Both the position numbers and the translations under genes were made by a program. From contig JAFQUJ010000016.1 of the NCBI GenBank assembly GCA_017408585.1, forward strand, positions 45,094 through 109,093: DNA of 64,000 nucleotides, in the 5' to 3' direction. Below the pieces are notes generated by a model. The model was not told where the DNA came from, did no database searches, and was given only the letters and a program-made list of their open reading frames with translations. This document shows positions 8,839-64,000 of the stretch, piece by piece; position 1 is the first letter of the stretch, and each line of letters opens with the position of its first letter. Source of the stretch: Clostridia bacterium (GTDB lineage: Bacteria > Bacillota > Clostridia > Oscillospirales > CAG-272).

Positions 8839-8910
8839 ATTATCCCCCCCTTTTTCGTTTTCGTTAGATATATTAGCACAAAGCAATCTTTAATTCAAGA
8901 TAAAAAAGAA

Positions 8911-8944: not shown

Positions 8945-9871
8945 TTAAATAAAATCCGGAGTGCTAAGATATCTCTCTCCGCTATCGGTTAGGAGTGCGA
9001 CAATCGTTTTTCCCTCGTTTTCGGGGCGAGAGGCGAATTTAACCATAGCGCAAAGAGCTGCGCCTGCTGAGATGCCGACTAAAATTCCCTCGGTGGCAAC
9101 CAGCTCCTTAGCGTATTTATACGCCTCGCCATCATCTACTGTGATGATTTCGTCATAAATTTCTCGATTTAGGTTTTGGGGCACGAAATTAGCGCCTATT
9201 CCTTGGATTTTGTGCGACCCTGTGTAGCCCTTTGACAAAAGCGGAGATGCGCTCGGCTCTACTGCGATTATCTGTACGCTTGGGTTTTTGCTTTTCAAAA
9301 ATTCGCCCACTCCACTAAGTGTTCCACCTGTTCCCACGCAAGCAACAAATGCGTCTATTTTTCCGTCGGTATCAATCCAAATTTCAGGGCCTGTGGTTGT
9401 TTTATGAGCCTCGGGGTTGGCGGGATTATCAAATTGCGAGGGGATAAAGGAGTTTGGAATTTCCCCTAAGAGAGCGATTGCCTTATCTATTGCGCCCTTC
9501 ATTCCTAGTGCGCCCTCGGTCAAGACAAGCTCTGCGCCATAGGCTCTCATAAGATTTCGTCTTTCAAGTGACATTGAGTCGGGCATTACAATAATGCACC
9601 TATATCCCCTTGCTTTTGCAATCATAGCAAGGGCTATACCTGTATTACCCGAGGTTGGCTCAATTATAGTGCCACCTGTGGTTAATTTTCCGCTTTTTTC
9701 CGCCTCATTTATCATTGATAGAGCTACTCTATCCTTTGCCGAGCCTGCGGGATTAAACATCTCTAATTTGACAAGCAAGCGAGCGTTTATGCTGTTTGCC
9801 TTAACAAAGCTTGAAAGCTCGACAAGCGGTGTGTTACCTATAAGGTCTGTTATCGAATTATAGATTTTCAT
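8945..9871 (-). CDS. cysK: cysteine synthase A (O-acetylserine sulfhydrylase)
   Basis: 308 aa. IGNTPLVEL, the PLP-lysine context NPAGSAKDR, and GTGGT. Confidence 0.9.
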   Translation of the reverse strand: MKIYNSITDLIGNTPLVELSSFVKANSINARLLVKLEMFNPAGSAKDRVALSMINEAEKSGKLTTGGTIIEPTSGNTGIALAMIAKARGYRCIIVMPDSMSLERRNLMRAYGAELVLTEGALGMKGAIDKAIALLGEIPNSFIPSQFDNPANPEAHKTTTGPEIWIDTDGKIDAFVACVGTGGTLSGVGEFLKSKNPSVQIIAVEPSASPLLSKGYTGSHKIQGIGANFVPQNLNREIYDEIITVDDGEAYKYAKELVATEGILVGISAGAALCAMVKFASRPENEGKTIVALLTDSGERYLSTPDFI

Positions 9872-10862
9872 TATTCTTCTCCAAAATTGATTTTAAAACA
9901 GGATAAATTTTTTCCGCCATTCTCATAAATCCGAGGTCGGTCGGGTGACAGCCCTCTACTGTGCAAATTGAGCGATCTGTGTCGCCAAAATAGGTTTCTC
10001 CATCTATAAAATACACATTTTTATCACCTTTTGCAAGGGCGTTTTCGTAGGTGCGCTTTACGATTTCTCGACGGATTGTATTTTCCTCGACATCGCCATC
10101 AAAATCGGGCTTTGTCATCATAACGATTGGCAATGTCGGATTTGCCTCGCGTATGATTTTGAAAAACGGCTCGTGAGTTGCCTCAAGATACTCGGGCGTG
10201 GGGGCGTTATGGTCGTAATCCATTACAAAAATGCTCATATCAAGCTTTTTTATATAGTTTGCCATGGCTTCCTCGCCTCTTGCGTTACCCGACACACCGA
10301 GGTTGATATAATCGCTGTCAAGCCACCGTGTAACGAGGGCTGTGTAGCATTTTCCAACAGTTGAAGCGCATCCGCCCTCAGTAATTGACGAGCCATAAAA
10401 GACGATTGGCTTCGTATAGGTGTATGGATCTGCGCTCTCTATTGTCGCATCGTCCTCAATTTCGATATCAATATCAAGCACGGGCTCATTTCTTGGGAGC
10501 ATTAGTGTTATATTTGACATTTTATCGCTCTTTTTTACAATGCCCTCAAATTCAAGTATCCCATAATTGCTAGCATTTATAATAGCAATGCGTGTTTTTT
10601 CCTCGAAAACATCAATTCCGCAAGAGCCACTAAGAGGGATTGCCCAGTCGGGATTGTTGCTTTCCACCTTTACCTTGATTTTGATCTCTTTACTATCGGT
10701 TTTAAAGCGCACTCTGACACCTGCGCCTGAGAAAATACGCACCCCTGTGTATTCATTTACGGTTTTTGCGACATCGTCATCCATTCTAACAAGGCGATTA
10801 TTTTTGTTTATAAATGCTCCGTGAATGGTTATGGGAGTTTCCTTAAAATTATATAATTTCAT
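9858..10862 (-). CDS. SGNH/GDSL-type hydrolase with N-terminal beta-sandwich-like domain (paralog 1)
   Basis: Block I FYGSSITEGG, block III GVSGNARG and block V CHPTDLGF. Its stop overlaps the cysK start by 14 nt. Confidence 0.75.
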   Translation of the reverse strand: MKLYNFKETPITIHGAFINKNNRLVRMDDDVAKTVNEYTGVRIFSGAGVRVRFKTDSKEIKIKVKVESNNPDWAIPLSGSCGIDVFEEKTRIAIINASNYGILEFEGIVKKSDKMSNITLMLPRNEPVLDIDIEIEDDATIESADPYTYTKPIVFYGSSITEGGCASTVGKCYTALVTRWLDSDYINLGVSGNARGEEAMANYIKKLDMSIFVMDYDHNAPTPEYLEATHEPFFKIIREANPTLPIVMMTKPDFDGDVEENTIRREIVKRTYENALAKGDKNVYFIDGETYFGDTDRSICTVEGCHPTDLGFMRMAEKIYPVLKSILEKNNENL

Positions 10863-25451: not shown

Positions 25452-27344
25452 TTATTCCTCGTCATTTGTAGGAACGAGTGCATCAAGAGTTGTTGGAGCA
25501 AGAACCTTTTCAGCCTGCTCATAGGTTACTGTATAGAGGCTTGCGTCCTCGTAGTCAAGAGTTGATACCTTGCATGAGGTTGTTGTGTCCTGAATGAACT
25601 GAACCTCTTCGCCTTCAACATAAGCATACGCTGTGATTACAAGCTCCAGCTGTGTAAGCTCTGTTGTGGTAAAGCCACTAATTGAGAACTTGAAGTTATT
25701 ATACTCTACGCTCTCTTGCTCTATCATGATAGCGCCCTTCTTGCCTTCTGCCAAATTAACGCTTCCGTCTGCTTTCAAGAAGCGATTGCTTGCTAGGTGG
25801 GTTGGGTTTAGCATCAAGATACCGAAGGTGATATCCTTTTCGTTATGGAGATTATATAGGTCAAAGTTGTCCTTATTTACTGTCCAACCGCCTGCAATTG
25901 AGCCTGAGCCATCAATTGAGTATCCACCTGTGGTGCTGAAGATTGGATCAAGGTCTATTTTTTCGTTTGCTTGGTTACAGTTTTCTACTTGACAGAAGAT
26001 TTCGTGCAAGCCTGCGCTTGTAAAGCCCTCTGTGTAGGTTATTATATGCTTTACATTATGATCGTCTGCTACCTTTGCGATAAAGCCCTTACACTGAACG
26101 CCCTCTGCCTCGTTGTAGTTCTTGCAGTAGTTATCCTTTGTGCAATCGTAGTTTTCAAACTCGTGCTCGAGCATTGAGTTTGGTGTTTCAATGGCGCTTA
26201 GCTCCTTACCGCAGAAGCAGTTTGTTGTTACCTTTTCAAGTGAGTAACAGGTTGCTGGGACAAGATCTGCGAGTCTTGGATCTTCGAGGTGCTTTGCAAG
26301 ATCAGCTTCAGACGCACAGAATACGGCTGTTCTTGTGTTTGAATAGCTTTCAAAATCCGAGCTTGACTTATCGTTTGCGTTTGCAAAAATAATTTTTTGT
26401 GTGCTTCCCCAATATCCTGTGGAAATTGTAGTCATGTCGCCCAAAAATACGATTGTATTTTTAGGTCCGTTCTGGAAGAAATACTGATTTGGCATAGCTG
26501 TGAGTTTATCGCCAAATACTAATACATCGTTTAGATTCTTACATTCTCTACATACGCTATTGTTTGAAATGCTCGTAAGGTTTGCAGGGAAATAGTAAAT
26601 TTCCGGTTTTTCCGGAACATTCTCATATGTAAAGGTTTCGTTTACAAAATACATATTAACGCAATCATCAAAGCTTGCATTTCTTGATCCGCCGCCACCA
26701 CTTGACCATGTTTCAAGCGACTCCGAAAGGTGTACCGCACCTAAGTTCGTACATCCTGAAAAGTGAGCAACATCGTATAGCGAGGTAAAGCAGTCGGGCA
26801 TTGAGAATGCTTTAAGATTTTTACAGCCATAGAACATATATGACGGGAAGACTCTCATCGTATTGTTTTCACTAAACTTAAGTGTACACTCCTCAAGTCC
26901 TGTTGCATTTTGGAAAATGGCATTTGAAAGACTTGATATAGTATCTGGGAAGGTTATCCACTTCAATGTTGTACCGTTGCTTCCTGCATACTTTGCAACA
27001 TGAGTGATTCCGGTAGGGATATCGAAGCCCTTTATGTCTGCATAAGTATAAAGATTGCCAGCCTCCTCGGTTTTGCCAAGCTTGCTGTTGATATAGTCAA
27101 AATCCATATAAGACTCAAAAGTAGTATTATAGTTTCCTGAGCCTACGGTCGAGGTATCCTTAAACACATAGCTTACAGGACACTTAAAGCCGTCATAGAA
27201 TTCAACAATTTCGCTATCAATACATTGATATTTGGTTCTTACAGGTGCGTCGGTGTAGGTTGTAACCTCTGCACTAACAGAGATTGCAAGCACAGCGCAA
27301 AGTGCAATTACCATTACAAGAGTTAAAAGCAATTTCTTTTTCAT
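25452..27344 (-). CDS. secreted BspA-type leucine-rich-repeat protein, paralog 1 (signal peptide + LRR + Cys-rich module + conserved C-terminal domain)
   Basis: 630 aa. Signal peptide MKKKLLLTLVMVIALCAVLAISVSAE. LRR_5-like repeats (FQNATGLEECTL, FYGCKNLKAF, FSGCTNLGAV). The C-terminal ~190 aa are nearly identical to paralog 2. Confidence 0.75.
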   Translation of the reverse strand: MKKKLLLTLVMVIALCAVLAISVSAEVTTYTDAPVRTKYQCIDSEIVEFYDGFKCPVSYVFKDTSTVGSGNYNTTFESYMDFDYINSKLGKTEEAGNLYTYADIKGFDIPTGITHVAKYAGSNGTTLKWITFPDTISSLSNAIFQNATGLEECTLKFSENNTMRVFPSYMFYGCKNLKAFSMPDCFTSLYDVAHFSGCTNLGAVHLSESLETWSSGGGGSRNASFDDCVNMYFVNETFTYENVPEKPEIYYFPANLTSISNNSVCRECKNLNDVLVFGDKLTAMPNQYFFQNGPKNTIVFLGDMTTISTGYWGSTQKIIFANANDKSSSDFESYSNTRTAVFCASEADLAKHLEDPRLADLVPATCYSLEKVTTNCFCGKELSAIETPNSMLEHEFENYDCTKDNYCKNYNEAEGVQCKGFIAKVADDHNVKHIITYTEGFTSAGLHEIFCQVENCNQANEKIDLDPIFSTTGGYSIDGSGSIAGGWTVNKDNFDLYNLHNEKDITFGILMLNPTHLASNRFLKADGSVNLAEGKKGAIMIEQESVEYNNFKFSISGFTTTELTQLELVITAYAYVEGEEVQFIQDTTTSCKVSTLDYEDASLYTVTYEQAEKVLAPTTLDALVPTNDEE

Positions 27345-27358
27345 ATTTTTCTCCTTGT

Positions 27359-27380
27359 GGGGTCGAGTGGCTCGACACCC
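27359..27380 (-). promoter_or_regulatory. 5'UTR stem-loop abutting the Shine-Dalgarno of LRR gene 1
   Basis: mRNA sense: GGGUGUCGAG-ccac-UCGACCCC, then acAAGGAGAaaaauAUG. Conserved at 29447-29468. An analogous hairpin sits at 63741-63757. Confidence 0.45.
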
Positions 27381-27405
27381 ATTATATAAATATTATTGTA
27401 GCTAT

Positions 27406-27435
27406 ATTATATATCATCAAGCATTAATATGTCAA
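27406..27435 (-). promoter_or_regulatory. sigma70-like promoter of LRR gene 1
   Basis: Minus strand: TTGACA (27435-27430), 18 nt spacer, TATAAT (27411-27406). Confidence 0.6.
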
Positions 27436-27437
27436 GT

Positions 27438-27494
27438 CATTTTGCACAAAAATAAAGCCCCCCCCCCCGATTTTTGTGCAAAATGCACAAAATT
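27438..27494 (-). promoter_or_regulatory. upstream control module: 16 bp perfect inverted repeat around a G11 tract, plus a second TGTGCA/TGCACA palindrome
   Basis: + strand: CATTTTGCACAAAAAT (27438-27453), aaag, C11 (27458-27468), g, ATTTTTGTGCAAAATG (27470-27485), then CACAAAATT. TTTGTGCA-aaa-TGCACAAA forms a second palindrome. Confidence 0.6.
27458..27468. repeat. homopolymeric tract, C11 on + strand (G11 in gene orientation)
   Basis: Counted directly: 3 C at 27458-27460 plus 8 C at 27461-27468. Confidence 0.95.
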
Positions 27495-27498
27495 AAAC

Positions 27499-27530
27499 AA
27501 AAAAACACCTTGTAATCAAGGTGTTTTTTG
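27499..27530 (-). terminator. terminator of LRR gene 2 (copy 2 of the repeated terminator)
   Basis: ACACCTTG-taat-CAAGGTGT flanked by A and T runs. Confidence 0.7.
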
Positions 27531-27539
27531 TGTTTTTAA

Positions 27540-29432
27540 TTATTCCTCGTCATTTGTAGGAACGAGTGCGTCAAGAGTTGTTGGAGCAAGAACCTTTTCT
27601 GCTTGCTCGTAGGATACTGTGTAGAGGCTTGCGTCCTCGTAGTCAAGAGTTGATACCTTGCATGAGGTTGTTGTGTCTTGAATGAACTGAACCTCTTGTC
27701 CTTCAACATACGCATACGCTGTAATTACAAGCTCCAGCTGTGTAAGCTCTGTTGTAGTAAAGCCACTAATTGAGAACTTGAAGTTATTATACTCTACGCT
27801 CTCTTGCTCTATCATAATAGCGCCCTTCTTGCCTTCTGCCAAATTAACGCTTCCGTCTGCCTTCAAGAAGCGATTGCTTGCTAGGTGGGTTGGGTTTACC
27901 ATCAAAATACCGAAGGTAATATCCTTTTCGTTATGGAGATTATATAGGTCAAAGTTATCCTTATTTACTGTCCAACCGCCTGCAATTGAGCCTGAGCCAT
28001 CAATTGAGTAGCCACCTGTGGTGCTAAAGATTGGATCAAGGTCTATTGATGCGTCAAGCTGTGTGCAGTTTTCGTTTTGGCAGAATATCTTATGCAAGCC
28101 CATGCTTGTAAAGCCACTCACATAGGTCACTGTATTCTTTTCGATATGACTAAGTGCCTCGGCCTCGAGTGAAGCTCCACAATGTGCGTAATTCTTGCAC
28201 TCATTTCCCTTGGTGCAATCAAAATTTTCCTCATACTCGTGATCAAGCATTGTGTTTGGTGTTTCGCCCTCGCTAATCACAGTATTGCAGAAGCAACGGG
28301 TTACGCCCTTTTCGTTTGAGTAGCATGTAGCAGGCTCAATAGTTGAATGTTTAGGGCTTGCCATGTGCTTTGAAAGGTCGCTTTCGGAAGCGCAGAATAC
28401 GGCTGTTCTTGAATTGGTGTAACTTGCAAAATCCGCACTTGATTTGTCGTTAGCGTTTGCAAAAATTATTTTTGAAGTTTTCCAGTTGGTTGTATTTATC
28501 TCGGTCATATCTCCAAGGAATACAACCGTGCTTGTAACATTCTTGAAAAGATAGCTACCGCTTGCGGAGGTGATCTGTGTTCCGAACACCAAAACGCTGT
28601 TCAAGGAAGTGGCACTTTCAAAGGTGTTTGTGTGAATGGTGTGAAGACTTTCGGGGAAGTAGTAAATATCGGGTTTTGCAGGGGCTGTATCACTTGTAGT
28701 AAATGGTTCGCTTACAAAATATACCTTGCTGAGGTTTTGAAAGACTGCGTATCTGTTCGAGCCTGTCTTTTCAAGTATTTGAATGTTTTTCGATAGATAA
28801 ACGGGACCCAAGCTCGAGCAATCTTTAAAGAAGTTACCCTCACCTGTTATCGTGGTAATGCAGTCGGGAATGCTAAGCGCCTTTAATTTTGAGCAACCAG
28901 CGAACATCCAACCGGAAAGGGTTGTAAATTCGGTATCGGCTTCCGTATGCTCAAAAACAACCTCTTCAAGAACTGCTGAGTTTTGAAAACCGGTACTACC
29001 AATGGATGTAACGGTGTGGGGGAATGTGATTTTCTTAACCGAGCTCAAGGAGTGGGCAAATTGATCTCCAAGGGTAGTAATTCCCTCCGGAATATCAAGC
29101 TCAACAATGTTGTCAATTGTGTAATTCTTTCCCTTTTCCGTAAGGAATGAAAAGTCAAGCACTTTCTTAAGTCCAGCATTTCCGTAGGAGCCCTTATCAA
29201 CGGTTGCTTGGTCCTTGAAAATATAATGGCTTGGGCAAACAAATCCGTCATCAAACACAACATAGTCGTCAGTTGAGTTGACAAAGGTTGATTTTGCGGG
29301 CGCGTCGGGGTAGGTTGTAACCTCTAAAGCCTCGCCATCAACCGTTGTAATCGTTTTTGCACTTACGCAAAGAGCGAAAATCGAGCAAAGTACAATTACC
29401 ATTACAAGAGTTAAAAGTAATTTCTTTTTCAT
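27540..29432 (-). CDS. secreted BspA-type leucine-rich-repeat protein, paralog 2
   Basis: Start placed at MKKKLLLTLVMVIVLCSIFALCVSAK (ATG 29432, after AAGGAGA), giving 630 aa like paralog 1. The ORF-track upstream extension to 29507 would cover the conserved promoter/UTR. Confidence 0.75.
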   Translation of the reverse strand: MKKKLLLTLVMVIVLCSIFALCVSAKTITTVDGEALEVTTYPDAPAKSTFVNSTDDYVVFDDGFVCPSHYIFKDQATVDKGSYGNAGLKKVLDFSFLTEKGKNYTIDNIVELDIPEGITTLGDQFAHSLSSVKKITFPHTVTSIGSTGFQNSAVLEEVVFEHTEADTEFTTLSGWMFAGCSKLKALSIPDCITTITGEGNFFKDCSSLGPVYLSKNIQILEKTGSNRYAVFQNLSKVYFVSEPFTTSDTAPAKPDIYYFPESLHTIHTNTFESATSLNSVLVFGTQITSASGSYLFKNVTSTVVFLGDMTEINTTNWKTSKIIFANANDKSSADFASYTNSRTAVFCASESDLSKHMASPKHSTIEPATCYSNEKGVTRCFCNTVISEGETPNTMLDHEYEENFDCTKGNECKNYAHCGASLEAEALSHIEKNTVTYVSGFTSMGLHKIFCQNENCTQLDASIDLDPIFSTTGGYSIDGSGSIAGGWTVNKDNFDLYNLHNEKDITFGILMVNPTHLASNRFLKADGSVNLAEGKKGAIMIEQESVEYNNFKFSISGFTTTELTQLELVITAYAYVEGQEVQFIQDTTTSCKVSTLDYEDASLYTVSYEQAEKVLAPTTLDALVPTNDEE

Positions 29433-29492
29433 ATTTTTCTCCTTGTGGGGTCGAGTGGCTCGACGCCCATTATAAAATATTACTGTAGTTAT

Positions 29493-29521
29493 ATTATATA
29501 TTACCAAGCATTATATGTCAA
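29493..29521 (-). promoter_or_regulatory. sigma70-like promoter of LRR gene 2
   Basis: Minus strand: TTGACA (29521-29516), 17 nt spacer, TATAAT (29498-29493). Confidence 0.6.
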
Positions 29522-29544
29522 GTCATTTTGCACAAAAAATAAAG

Positions 29545-29554
29545 CCCCCCCCCC
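29545..29554. repeat. homopolymeric tract, C10 on + strand (G10 in gene orientation)
   Basis: Counted directly. Flanked by CATTTTGCACAAAAAAT and ATTTTTGTACAAAATGCACAAAATT. Confidence 0.95.
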
Positions 29555-29584
29555 GATTTTTGTACAAAATGCACAAAATTAAAC

Positions 29585-55739: not shown

Positions 55740-55829
55740 TTAATCCCCCCCGTATTTAACAACAGATTTTACTGCTTTAGTCCAAATAGAATTAGAGCCC
55801 GCCTCTATCCACTCTAACGCTTGTCCGTT
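55740..55829 (-). pseudogene. 29-codon start-less fragment (candidate toxin C-terminal tip)
   Basis: NGQALEWIEAGSNSIWTKAVKSVVKYGGD-stop, abutting the next ATG (GATTAAATG). Confidence 0.3.
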
Positions 55830-62117: not shown

Positions 62118-63728
62118 TTATACTATTTCAAGCGTACCATTGATTGTTTTAAGGGTTGTTATTCCTTTTTTCTTTGCTACATTATAAAGCGTAACAACCT
62201 CAAGGTTAACTCCGCCTACCGACTTTTCTTGATAGTAGGTTGAATCCTTTTCCGCTTGAACGAAGGTATAGCCCTCGTCATTCTTTACATAAAGCGCCAT
62301 TGCAAGATTTAGGCTTTGAGCATTTTCAGAGCTGAAGTTTTCAATTGCTATATTTACGATTGCATATTGAGTATCAACCTCAATTTGAATTCCCTTTCCG
62401 TCAACTACGCCTGCTTCTGTAAAGATGGTTTCGCCGATTGAGTCAGTATTAATAATTATAAGTCCAATTGATACAATTGCGTCAGGAGCGAATTCTTGAT
62501 ATTTTCCAAGCTCGATTTTATTGATTTTAAAGCCTGCGCTAAGACCGCCTGTGCCATCCTCTCTTGTGGAATATCCAATTGCTTCAAATAGCGCCGGGGT
62601 TTTGTACTCGCCCTCTTTATCAATAAGCTCTGTTCCAAGTATGCATCCTGCCTCGTTATTACAGGTTATCTTCTTTGTGCCCTGTGCGGTAAAGCCATCA
62701 GGGAATGTCCATTCTACTGTTACAGAGTGTGTCTTGCCTTCCTCTGATACTCCGCATTTTGAACAGGTAGCTCCTGTTGTACACATATGGTCATCCTCTG
62801 CGATTTCGTGTTTACCGTAAAATTCGCAGAAGGTCATAATGGTTGCCTCCCACAAAGCATTATTTGCATTCTTGTTGTTTCCACCCTGCCATATGGTTGT
62901 ATAAGAATTAATTTGATCTTCAGTGTAAACGCCTTCGGTTTTAGGAACTAGCCAAACCACGCTAAATGCCGAGGTGTTTTTGTTCCAGGTCAAGCGTGGG
63001 TCGCTTGCGTCTTCTGGGGTTATTCCCTCGTGTATATACACAACACTCTTTATATTTGAGTTGGAATTCAAGTTTTGTAAAGCAGTATTTCTAATCGTTC
63101 CTGTTGCACCCTCGTGGAATACGACCTTTTCCATGCTTGAGCAGAAGAAGTTACCTGTAAGAAGGTTGTTTTTTCCGTAGAAGTGAACCTCTTTAAGAGA
63201 TGTGCATCCACTAAGGAAGCCACCCTTAGATTGAGGCTCATATGCTCTTGCAAAGAAGCTTAGCTTTTCAAGCGCGCTCCAGCCTGCTAAGTTTCCTTGG
63301 CTACCTGCACCATCTCCGAGAACAGGTATATGGAATTCAAGCTCGGTTATTTGTGTATGCAGGCTTGTTGTCTTTGTGTCCTTGTCGGAAAGAGCATACA
63401 CGGATAGCGTTCCATTCCAGCCTGTTGAAAGTCTAACATAGCTATATTCCGCAAACTTATACACGGTGCCGTTTGAGTGTGTGAGCTCAATTGCGGGAAT
63501 TACAATTTTGGTAACGGAGGTATCGTGAAGGTAGATATACTTAAGCCTACAGTTTCCTCCTGTTTCCCATGGATTTTGAATTTCAAGCTCGTATGCGATG
63601 TCGGCGCTATCTGCCTCTACTTGCTCACCGTTGTGATTTACATATACAGCCTCAGCTGATACTGAAATTGCGAGCATACAAGCAATAGCGACTACTAATA
63701 ATGTCAACATTAAAAGTCTTTTTTTCAT
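62118..63728 (-). CDS. secreted BspA-type leucine-rich-repeat protein, paralog 3 (diverged)
   Basis: 536 aa. Signal peptide MKKRLLMLTLLVVAIACMLAISVSAE. LRR-like blocks (GCTSLKEVHF...), a Cys module (CTTGATCSKCG) and a C-terminal domain distantly similar to paralogs 1 and 2. Confidence 0.7.
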   Translation of the reverse strand: MKKRLLMLTLLVVAIACMLAISVSAEAVYVNHNGEQVEADSADIAYELEIQNPWETGGNCRLKYIYLHDTSVTKIVIPAIELTHSNGTVYKFAEYSYVRLSTGWNGTLSVYALSDKDTKTTSLHTQITELEFHIPVLGDGAGSQGNLAGWSALEKLSFFARAYEPQSKGGFLSGCTSLKEVHFYGKNNLLTGNFFCSSMEKVVFHEGATGTIRNTALQNLNSNSNIKSVVYIHEGITPEDASDPRLTWNKNTSAFSVVWLVPKTEGVYTEDQINSYTTIWQGGNNKNANNALWEATIMTFCEFYGKHEIAEDDHMCTTGATCSKCGVSEEGKTHSVTVEWTFPDGFTAQGTKKITCNNEAGCILGTELIDKEGEYKTPALFEAIGYSTREDGTGGLSAGFKINKIELGKYQEFAPDAIVSIGLIIINTDSIGETIFTEAGVVDGKGIQIEVDTQYAIVNIAIENFSSENAQSLNLAMALYVKNDEGYTFVQAEKDSTYYQEKSVGGVNLEVVTLYNVAKKKGITTLKTINGTLEIV

Positions 63729-63915: not shown

Positions 63916-63945
63916 ATTATACCATATATCGCATTTATTTGTCAA
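63916..63945 (-). promoter_or_regulatory. sigma70-like distal promoter of LRR gene 3
   Basis: Minus strand: TTGACA (63945-63940), 18 nt spacer, TGgTATAAT (TATAAT at 63921-63916). A second TGgTATAAT at 63788-63780 could be a proximal promoter. Confidence 0.5.
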
Positions 63946-63964
63946 TATGCACAATAAACAAATA

Positions 63965-63974
63965 CCCCCCCCCC
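63965..63974. repeat. homopolymeric tract, C10 on + strand (G10 in gene orientation)
   Basis: Counted directly. Flanked by ATATGCACAATAAACAAATA and GTTTTTTGTATATTTTGCACAAAAAT. The window ends at 64000. Confidence 0.95.
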
Positions 63975-64000
63975 GTTTTTTGTATATTTTGCACAAAAAT

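Follow-up and report, generated by a model that had tools for sequence, protein, structure and literature searches.

A G10 homopolymer between operator-like sites as a candidate slippage-prone spacer upstream of secreted LRR genes in Clostridia

An uninterrupted run of ten Gs lies at 29545-29554 on the minus strand (C10 on the plus strand) of the window, by which we mean the whole 64,000-nt stretch of DNA, from an uncultured gut Clostridia bacterium, that was analyzed. We argue, at somewhat better than even confidence, that this G10 is a slippage-prone spacer that would set the distance between a distal operator and the promoter of a secreted BspA-type LRR gene. The run ends 23 nt upstream of a promoter with a 12/12 match to consensus, between operator-like elements and past the terminator of the preceding gene. 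It belongs to a module that occurs three times in the window and recurs before LRR genes in related genomes. The case for a spacer is built on comparison of these copies.

The repeated module

Read in gene orientation from 29640 to 29430, copy 2 of the module starts at the intrinsic terminator of an upstream 119-aa gene (29615-29586, minus strand), which forms its 5' boundary. From there AATTTTGTGCATTTTGTACAAAAATC leads to G10 (29554-29545) and CTTTATTTTTTGTGCAAAATGAC leads on to TTGACA (29521-29516). Seventeen nt later comes TATAAT (29498-29493), followed by a hairpin, AAGGAG and the ATG at 29432. The initial annotation had placed a 17-nt-spaced TTGACA and TATAAT after the tract, and this sigma-70-type promoter (29493-29521, minus) does match at 12 of 12 positions. 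Counted from the predicted start of transcription, G10 spans about -59 to -68, and the unique sequences GTGCATTTTGTACAAAAATC and CTTTATTTTTTGTGCAAAATGAC anchor it on its two sides. On the plus strand the module reads CATTTTGCACAAAAAAT-AAAG-C10-G-ATTTTTGTACAAAATG-CACAAAATT (29524-29580). Its distal element is an operator-like palindrome, TTTTGTGCA-TTT-TGTACAAAA (29558-29578, minus), with one mismatch (GTAC for GCAC) and a centre 47 nt upstream of the -35 hexamer. A third half-site, TTTTGTGCAAAA (29526-29537, minus), abuts the promoter and lies 41 bp centre-to-centre from the distal palindrome. The tract therefore sits upstream of the -35, between a recurrent palindrome and a proximal half-site, to both of which a protein probably binds. 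The 5'-UTR element (29439-29468, minus) comprises the hairpin GGGCGTCGAG-CCA-CTCGACCCC (29468-29447) and the Shine-Dalgarno sequence AAGGAG, and is kept in copy 1 and in loci L002, L003, L004, L110 and L192.

Copy 1 (27406-27492, minus) has the same layout. Its palindrome at 27472-27492 is perfect, its tract is G11 (27458-27468), and after a proximal half-site the promoter follows with TTGACA at 27435-27430, an 18-nt spacer and TATAAT at 27411-27406. Every sequence statement that had been made from the letters alone holds here. The two architectures agree, the copy 2 tract is one nt shorter, GTAC replaces the GTGC of copy 1 (plus strand; GCAC in gene orientation), and copy 2 has one extra A (T6 against T5). 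The upstream regions, including UTR hairpin and Shine-Dalgarno, were called nearly identical and prove to be 92% identical over ~220 nt. It was also proposed that the neighbouring paralogs are in different length states. The lengths do differ, G11 against G10, but functional states are another matter since the operator-to-promoter spacing is the same and only the core spacer differs (18 nt in copy 1, 17 nt in copy 2). From tract start to -35 there are 33 nt in both copies, because the extra A/T exactly offsets the missing G (G11/T5 against G10/T6). These offsetting indels and the unequal core spacers had been overlooked, as had a third module at 63940-64000.

Module 3, of a second type, is cut by the end of the window (63916-63998, minus). 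It has a degenerate palindrome at 63978-63998 and G10 at 63965-63974. A half-site, TTGTGCA, abuts the TTGACA at 63945-63940, and an 18-nt spacer separates this from TGgTATAAT at 63921-63916. It must be added that a GC-rich hairpin, GGGYGTCGAG-YCW-CTCGACCC, immediately precedes the Shine-Dalgarno at 29447-29468 and 27359-27380 in the window and at L003, L110 and L192, and is kept in divergent family members. Type-2 genes have another hairpin that overlaps the Shine-Dalgarno (GCAGGGGCTNCCTGCAAGGAG).

The module is more than chance. Runs of G8 or longer, of which 0.33 would be expected in the window, are found at three tracts only, all in the same kind of module. All three are uninterrupted and in the range of ~8 nt or more at which homopolymers slip. 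The palindrome with at most 2 mismatches is expected 0.09 times in the window and observed 3 times, at the three modules only. Neither the remainder of the window nor ~190 kb of related loci contains an uninterrupted G/C run of 9 or more. Even runs of 8 or more occur just twice outside modules in 1.37 Mb of loci. Lowering the threshold to 7 adds just two G7 runs in the window, on the minus strand (8844-8850 and 55745-55751). Both are just before start codons and probably belong to ribosome-binding sites.

Poly-G runs can be Illumina artefacts, and the initial annotation spoke of a "switch module", a name that calls to mind an invertible promoter. We find it hardly credible that either explains the data. 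The tracts lie in the interior of long contigs, between unique flanks, and they are reproduced in independent assemblies made from different samples with different assemblers. What stands of the switch module is a repeated regulatory module with a long G run before paralogous secreted LRR genes. What falls is invertibility: the only inverted repeat encloses the 16-18 nt that hold the tract, none flanks the promoter, and there is no adjacent recombinase gene. The neighbours are genes for a P-type ATPase, an ArsR-family regulator, the 119-aa protein and an aldose epimerase. A phage or viral origin was likewise rejected. The G-run pattern has 0 matches in IMG/VR, a protein search of viral contigs gave no relatives, and the wider neighbours are housekeeping genes (PEPCK, TyrRS, topoisomerase), which speaks against it too.

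The operator-like palindrome

In gene orientation the half-sites run forward (TTTTGTGCA), reverse (TGCACAAAA), G run, forward (TTTTGTGCA). The first two make up the palindrome with its 3-nt centre. Half-sites 2 and 3 point towards each other, and this is why a 15-16 nt inverted repeat encloses the run. The initial annotation read these as arms on either side of the tract. One can take that further and propose that the inverted repeat, with the G run as its loop, is itself the functional unit, recognized as a hairpin or cruciform whose loop size is set by the run. Its arms agree at 16/16 positions in copy 1 and at 93% in copy 2, and the DNA fold reaches -9.9 kcal/mol (z = -3.5). However, the arms are copies of a motif that is found elsewhere as an N3-spaced palindrome without a long loop. 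Arm mismatches are uncompensated (GTAC in copy 2, and also in L080, L110 and L195), and the stem is A/T-rich with a loop of 16-18 nt. Placed ahead of the promoter and behind a strong terminator, the element probably escapes transcription, and it has no Rfam match. We regard a functional hairpin as very improbable. It is more economical to call the arms half-sites 2 and 3 of a widespread operator-like motif than a dedicated switch hairpin. A known cis-regulatory RNA was rejected on scores, the best Rfam hits being 22-29 bits against thresholds of 47-89.

The distribution of the palindrome was examined by a scan of one genome per species in which the G run was not required. Among the matches listed, at least 119 loci have the palindrome without a G run, nearly all of them in Clostridia MAGs, and the lineages include Acutalibacteraceae, Oscillospiraceae, Lachnospiraceae and Ruminococcus. 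These listed matches are intergenic and upstream of TTGACA/TATAAT promoters. The genes below them include yabE-like genes, the rpsJ operon, a tRNA cluster, glgB and phosphorylases. By its sequence and placement, TTTGTGCA-N3-TGCACAAA is a widespread operator-like motif upstream of strong promoters in Clostridia. The motif TGTGC-N5-GCACA resembles the CRP operator in form only. Compared with the CRP/FNR operators TGTGA-N6-TCACA (16-bp core) or TTGAT-N4-ATCAA it is 1 bp shorter and has C/G at position 5, and we reject a canonical CRP/FNR box. A search for the palindrome sequence in the searchable literature returned no description, only irrelevant matches. Nor could a gene for the cognate regulator be identified in the window.

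Spacing offers another line of reasoning. Distances from palindrome to -35 cluster weakly at ~28-31, 39-41, 50-52 and 61-63 nt, with a period of ~10.5-11 bp. Seven yabE-like orthologues all have the palindrome centre 28 nt from the -35, which inflates the signal; after they are collapsed the Rayleigh p is ~0.02-0.04, so that helical phasing of ~10.5-11 bp between palindrome and -35 is only a hint. In the modules the centre lies 42-49 nt from the -35, which falls between two more frequent classes, 39-41 and 50-52. The palindrome and the proximal site are 41-43 bp apart, centre-to-centre, in all modules. Unrelated promoters can also have paired sites. A search of JGI metagenomes with the pattern palindrome+N{12,36}+half-site gave 66 loci, which are such unrelated promoters with paired operator sites, and 0 of the 66 have a G run. 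The commonest spacing of the paired sites in unrelated promoters is 42-43 bp, with a second class at 52-53 bp.

Several metagenome families that carry the motif deserve mention. In a rumen family a perfect promoter, preceded by the palindrome, 21 nt and a half-site, drives a transcript of ~80 nt with two hairpins and a terminator but no ORF. This family is found at L135 (1209-1400) and at L124, L126, L128, L138, L147, L153, L164-L168, L173 and L181-L187. The members that were scanned had no match at the Rfam gathering threshold, and the family is a small RNA candidate. L135 has a low coding density under table 11. In several contigs of 11-14 kb (L131, L139, L149, L175, L180 and L189) the motif is within ~70 nt of a contig end. 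L189 has it at both ends, inverted (57-115+ and 12289-12347-). Such contigs are possible phages or small mobile elements, whether linear or circular. L131, L174 and L175 end in short G runs right after the proximal TTTTTGTGCAAA half-site, and these ends may be assembly breaks at G runs beside the motif in other organisms.

Tract length across loci and strains

Loci with the module were found through look-ups of homologous proteins, together with chance finds among the palindrome loci. There are 12 (window copies 1-3, L003, L110, L190, L195, L197, L080 and the strain variants L002, L004 and L191), plus L116. All except L116 precede LRR genes with a signal peptide. Type 1 includes window copy 1 (G11), window copy 2 (G10), L110 (G9), L080 (G11) and the three strain variants. 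Of these variants, L191 comes from another sample, is 99.91% identical over 13.9 kb with no gaps and has both G10 and G11. L002 is 97.1% identical and L004 ~97-98% identical; each has G10 before a single gene, which is chimeric in L004. In type 2 the proximal half-site abuts the -35, as in window copy 3 (G10). The others of this type are L003 (G10), L197 (G11, syntenic with L003) and L190 (G12). A contig related to module 3, L193, ends 112 nt short of the tract and yields no length.

Three loci fit neither type. In L195 the run is flipped, with C10 in gene orientation at 9903-9912, which implies that the tract acts as duplex DNA and not as RNA or a strand-specific structure. L196 has the same length and spacing as L195, but its run (~9860-9870, upstream of a gene at 10001) is interrupted, CCCCTCCCCC (C4TC5), and is possibly a locked derivative. 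In L116 (JAFQTO010000029.1, a Clostridia MAG, minus strand) a G14 at ~1021-1034 of the reverse complement precedes a lipoprotein gene of the solute-binding-protein-like kind. Here the run is immediately upstream of the palindrome, unlike the arrangement in the other modules. The link between G run and operator is therefore not restricted to LRR genes or to one arrangement. Two further family members, L192 and L194, have no tract.

Among homologous modules the run lengths are 9, 10, 11, 12 and 14, on either strand, with one interrupted copy. At the level of sequence, such features are typical of slippage-prone contingency tracts. Where the proteins are only 43-75% identical, there are still pure runs of 9-14, on either strand. 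In the type-2 promoters, whose flanks are near-identical, the anchors ACAAAAA and ATTTG are 12, 13, 13 and 14 nt apart, which means that the indels of 1-2 nt are concentrated at the run. In type 1 the picture is different in that the distance from tract start to -35 is 33 nt at all loci for G9, G10 and G11 alike. As for the G9 of L110, it may have arisen by a G-to-T substitution at the edge of the tract, with the register unchanged.

The scenario we propose is as follows. A dimeric regulator that is common in gut Clostridia would bind both the palindrome and the proximal site, which are about four helical turns apart (41-43 bp centre to centre). Slipped-strand mispairing at replication would add or remove one G. 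This would change both the distance and the rotational phase of the distal site relative to the proximal site and RNA polymerase, by ~34 degrees per nucleotide. Transcription of each paralog would then be raised or lowered independently of its neighbours, as an on/off switch or as a rheostat. The palindrome at ~-63 before tRNA, r-protein and yabE-like genes suggests that the regulator is an activator. Cooperative repression is equally compatible with the 12/12 promoter and, in type 2, with a proximal site that overlaps the -35. We count the constant 33 nt of type 1 and its offsetting G11/T5 and G10/T6 indels as a sign that spacing probably matters.

That same constancy can be turned around, since a fixed sum of 33 nt also reads as plain conservation of a fixed spacer. 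The run could then be a conserved rigid non-A/T G/C block, or the site of a protein that binds G/C runs, and it would not be a switch. Such a block would separate the distal operator from the UP-element zone and the proximal site, its length would be under selection, and the differences between loci would be slow drift. The strains fit this well. The question of whether the tracts are fixed had been raised from the start, and in the assembly consensus this locus has G10 in 4 of 4 strains from different samples (97-99.9% identical), while copy 1 has G11 in both of the 2 strains that carry it. The assembly consensus therefore has no length polymorphism at the strain level, and its tract lengths are stable over ~3% sequence divergence in the four strains. 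The constancy of the type-1 total at differing run lengths and the interrupted same-length version in L196 are in line with a fixed block as well. So is the presence of mutS and mutL on the contig of a related MAG, which also implies that slippage rates may be far below those of the classic phase variers deficient in mismatch repair.

Other observations run against a fixed block. A constraint on length alone should let the homopolymer decay by substitution, as it did in L196, yet pure runs survive between proteins as diverged as those above. The type-2 promoters differ exactly at the run despite their near-identical flanks. G/C runs this long are absent elsewhere in the related loci examined. 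We consider a fixed structural spacer possible but somewhat unlikely, and we favour a slippage-prone one. It must be noted that two facts weigh against the slippage-prone spacer as a switch. With a perfect consensus promoter ~23 nt downstream of the tract, help from upstream may be superfluous, and natural paired sites tolerate 41-43 bp, so that a change of 1 nt may act only mildly.

One can imagine a broader version of the slippage-prone spacer, in which a G/C homopolymer between two operator sites of a putative global regulator is a programmable spacer used lineage-wide by uncultured gut Clostridia. The palindrome of this regulator would be the one that is also upstream of rpsJ, tRNA and yabE-like promoters. 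Each member of a large BspA-type adhesin family would combine heritable stochastic length switching with physiological control by the regulator. We offer this as speculation, and on the sequence comparisons made here we judge it unlikely. If it were true, it would amount to a combinatorial system of surface variation in Gram-positive commensals.

Downstream genes and known systems

The product of the gene below copy 2 (paralog 2, 27540-29432, minus) is 630 aa long and combines a signal peptide with a BspA-type LRR domain (PF13306). Paralog 1 (25452-27344, minus) is also a 630-aa LRR_5 protein and is 59% identical to it. The two hardly differ in the signal peptide and in the last ~170 aa. Downstream of module 3 is a secreted protein of 536 aa (62118-63728, minus). 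It is a distant relative of both paralogs, with 27% identity in the C-terminal domain and a similar signal peptide. The family is secreted, occurs as tandem paralogs and has more than 200 homologues, as one would look for in surface or host-interaction genes. These secreted or surface LRR proteins are adhesin candidates.

Phase variation through repeats is known chiefly from pathogens, among them Neisseria, Haemophilus, Campylobacter, Helicobacter, Treponema and Mycoplasma. Invertible promoters dominate the literature on gut commensals, and to our knowledge DNA inversion alone has so far been documented for surface variation in Gram-positive commensals. The searchable literature gave no description of promoter poly-G tracts in gut Clostridia. 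A homopolymer spacer upstream of the promoter is a known concept; here it turns up in a group that has been little studied, linked to a widespread operator of which the searchable literature gave no description. If the tracts switch, uncultured anaerobic Firmicutes would have a second, inexpensive source of variation in their secreted or surface LRR proteins.

A close parallel is nadA of Neisseria meningitidis, where Metruccio et al. 2009 reportedly found that TAAA repeats, placed upstream of the -35, separate distal NadR/IHF elements from the core promoter. In both cases a simple repeat upstream of the -35 parts distal operators from a core promoter, that of an adhesin in nadA, and in nadA the repeat number alters spacing, output and the action of the regulator. 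The difference is that nadA has a tetranucleotide, a Gram-negative pathogen as host and a known regulator, whereas here there is a G/C homopolymer, with a putative regulator and a predicted dependence on length. Homopolymer switches of the spacer type are known from porA (poly-G, N. meningitidis) and vlp (poly-A, Mycoplasma hyorhinis). These share with our module a homopolymer upstream of a variable surface-protein family with conserved 5' expression cassettes, and control by slippage is a feature of porA and vlp (PMC7864442). In those genes the tract is between -35 and -10. Here the tract is upstream of the -35 and not between the hexamers; the spacers TATAATGCTTGGTAATA (17 nt, copy 2) and TATTAATGCTTGATGATA (18 nt, copy 1) have no repeat, and a porA/vlp-type switch of the -35/-10 spacer was rejected.

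Treponema pallidum offers another parallel. The promoters of tprE/G/J/F/I/L and tp0126 combine poly-G with sites for Tp0262, a CRP homologue. Single isolates contain a mixture of lengths from 7 to 11, and reporter output differs between G8 and G10 (PMC7864442). As here, poly-G (~7-12) is in the promoter region of surface-protein paralogs along with a CRP-type palindromic operator, and in T. pallidum length modulates transcription in concert with the regulator, with isolate heterogeneity and reporter effects both measured (PMC7864442). Unlike there, our operator is TGTGC-N5-GCACA and not TGTGA-N6-TCACA, the tract is at ~-59 to -68, and the evidence is a comparison of sequences. In sabA of Helicobacter pylori a T-tract beside the -35 is a rheostat (PMC4081817). 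That tract is directly adjacent to the -35 and has no known DNA-binding protein, whereas the G/C tracts here have operator-like sites on both sides and are 19-24 nt upstream of the -35. Phase variation of BspA-like proteins is known from Ca. Mycoplasma girerdii, which also has a BspA-type LRR multigene family, and the repeat-mediated variation was detected from metagenomic reads (PMC5476646). It differs in that CA dinucleotides inside the ORF give a translational on/off state, while our homopolymer is upstream of the promoter.

The tandem paralogs (25452-29432) have near-identical 5' cassettes (promoter, UTR and signal peptide) and C-terminal ~170 aa, with LRR middles that have diverged. Two strains have one chimeric LRR gene instead (L002, 3001-4893; L004, 3001-4998). 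Shared ends, diverged middles and single chimeric genes together point to recombination and copy-number variation between the paralogs, which would be a second route to surface variation.
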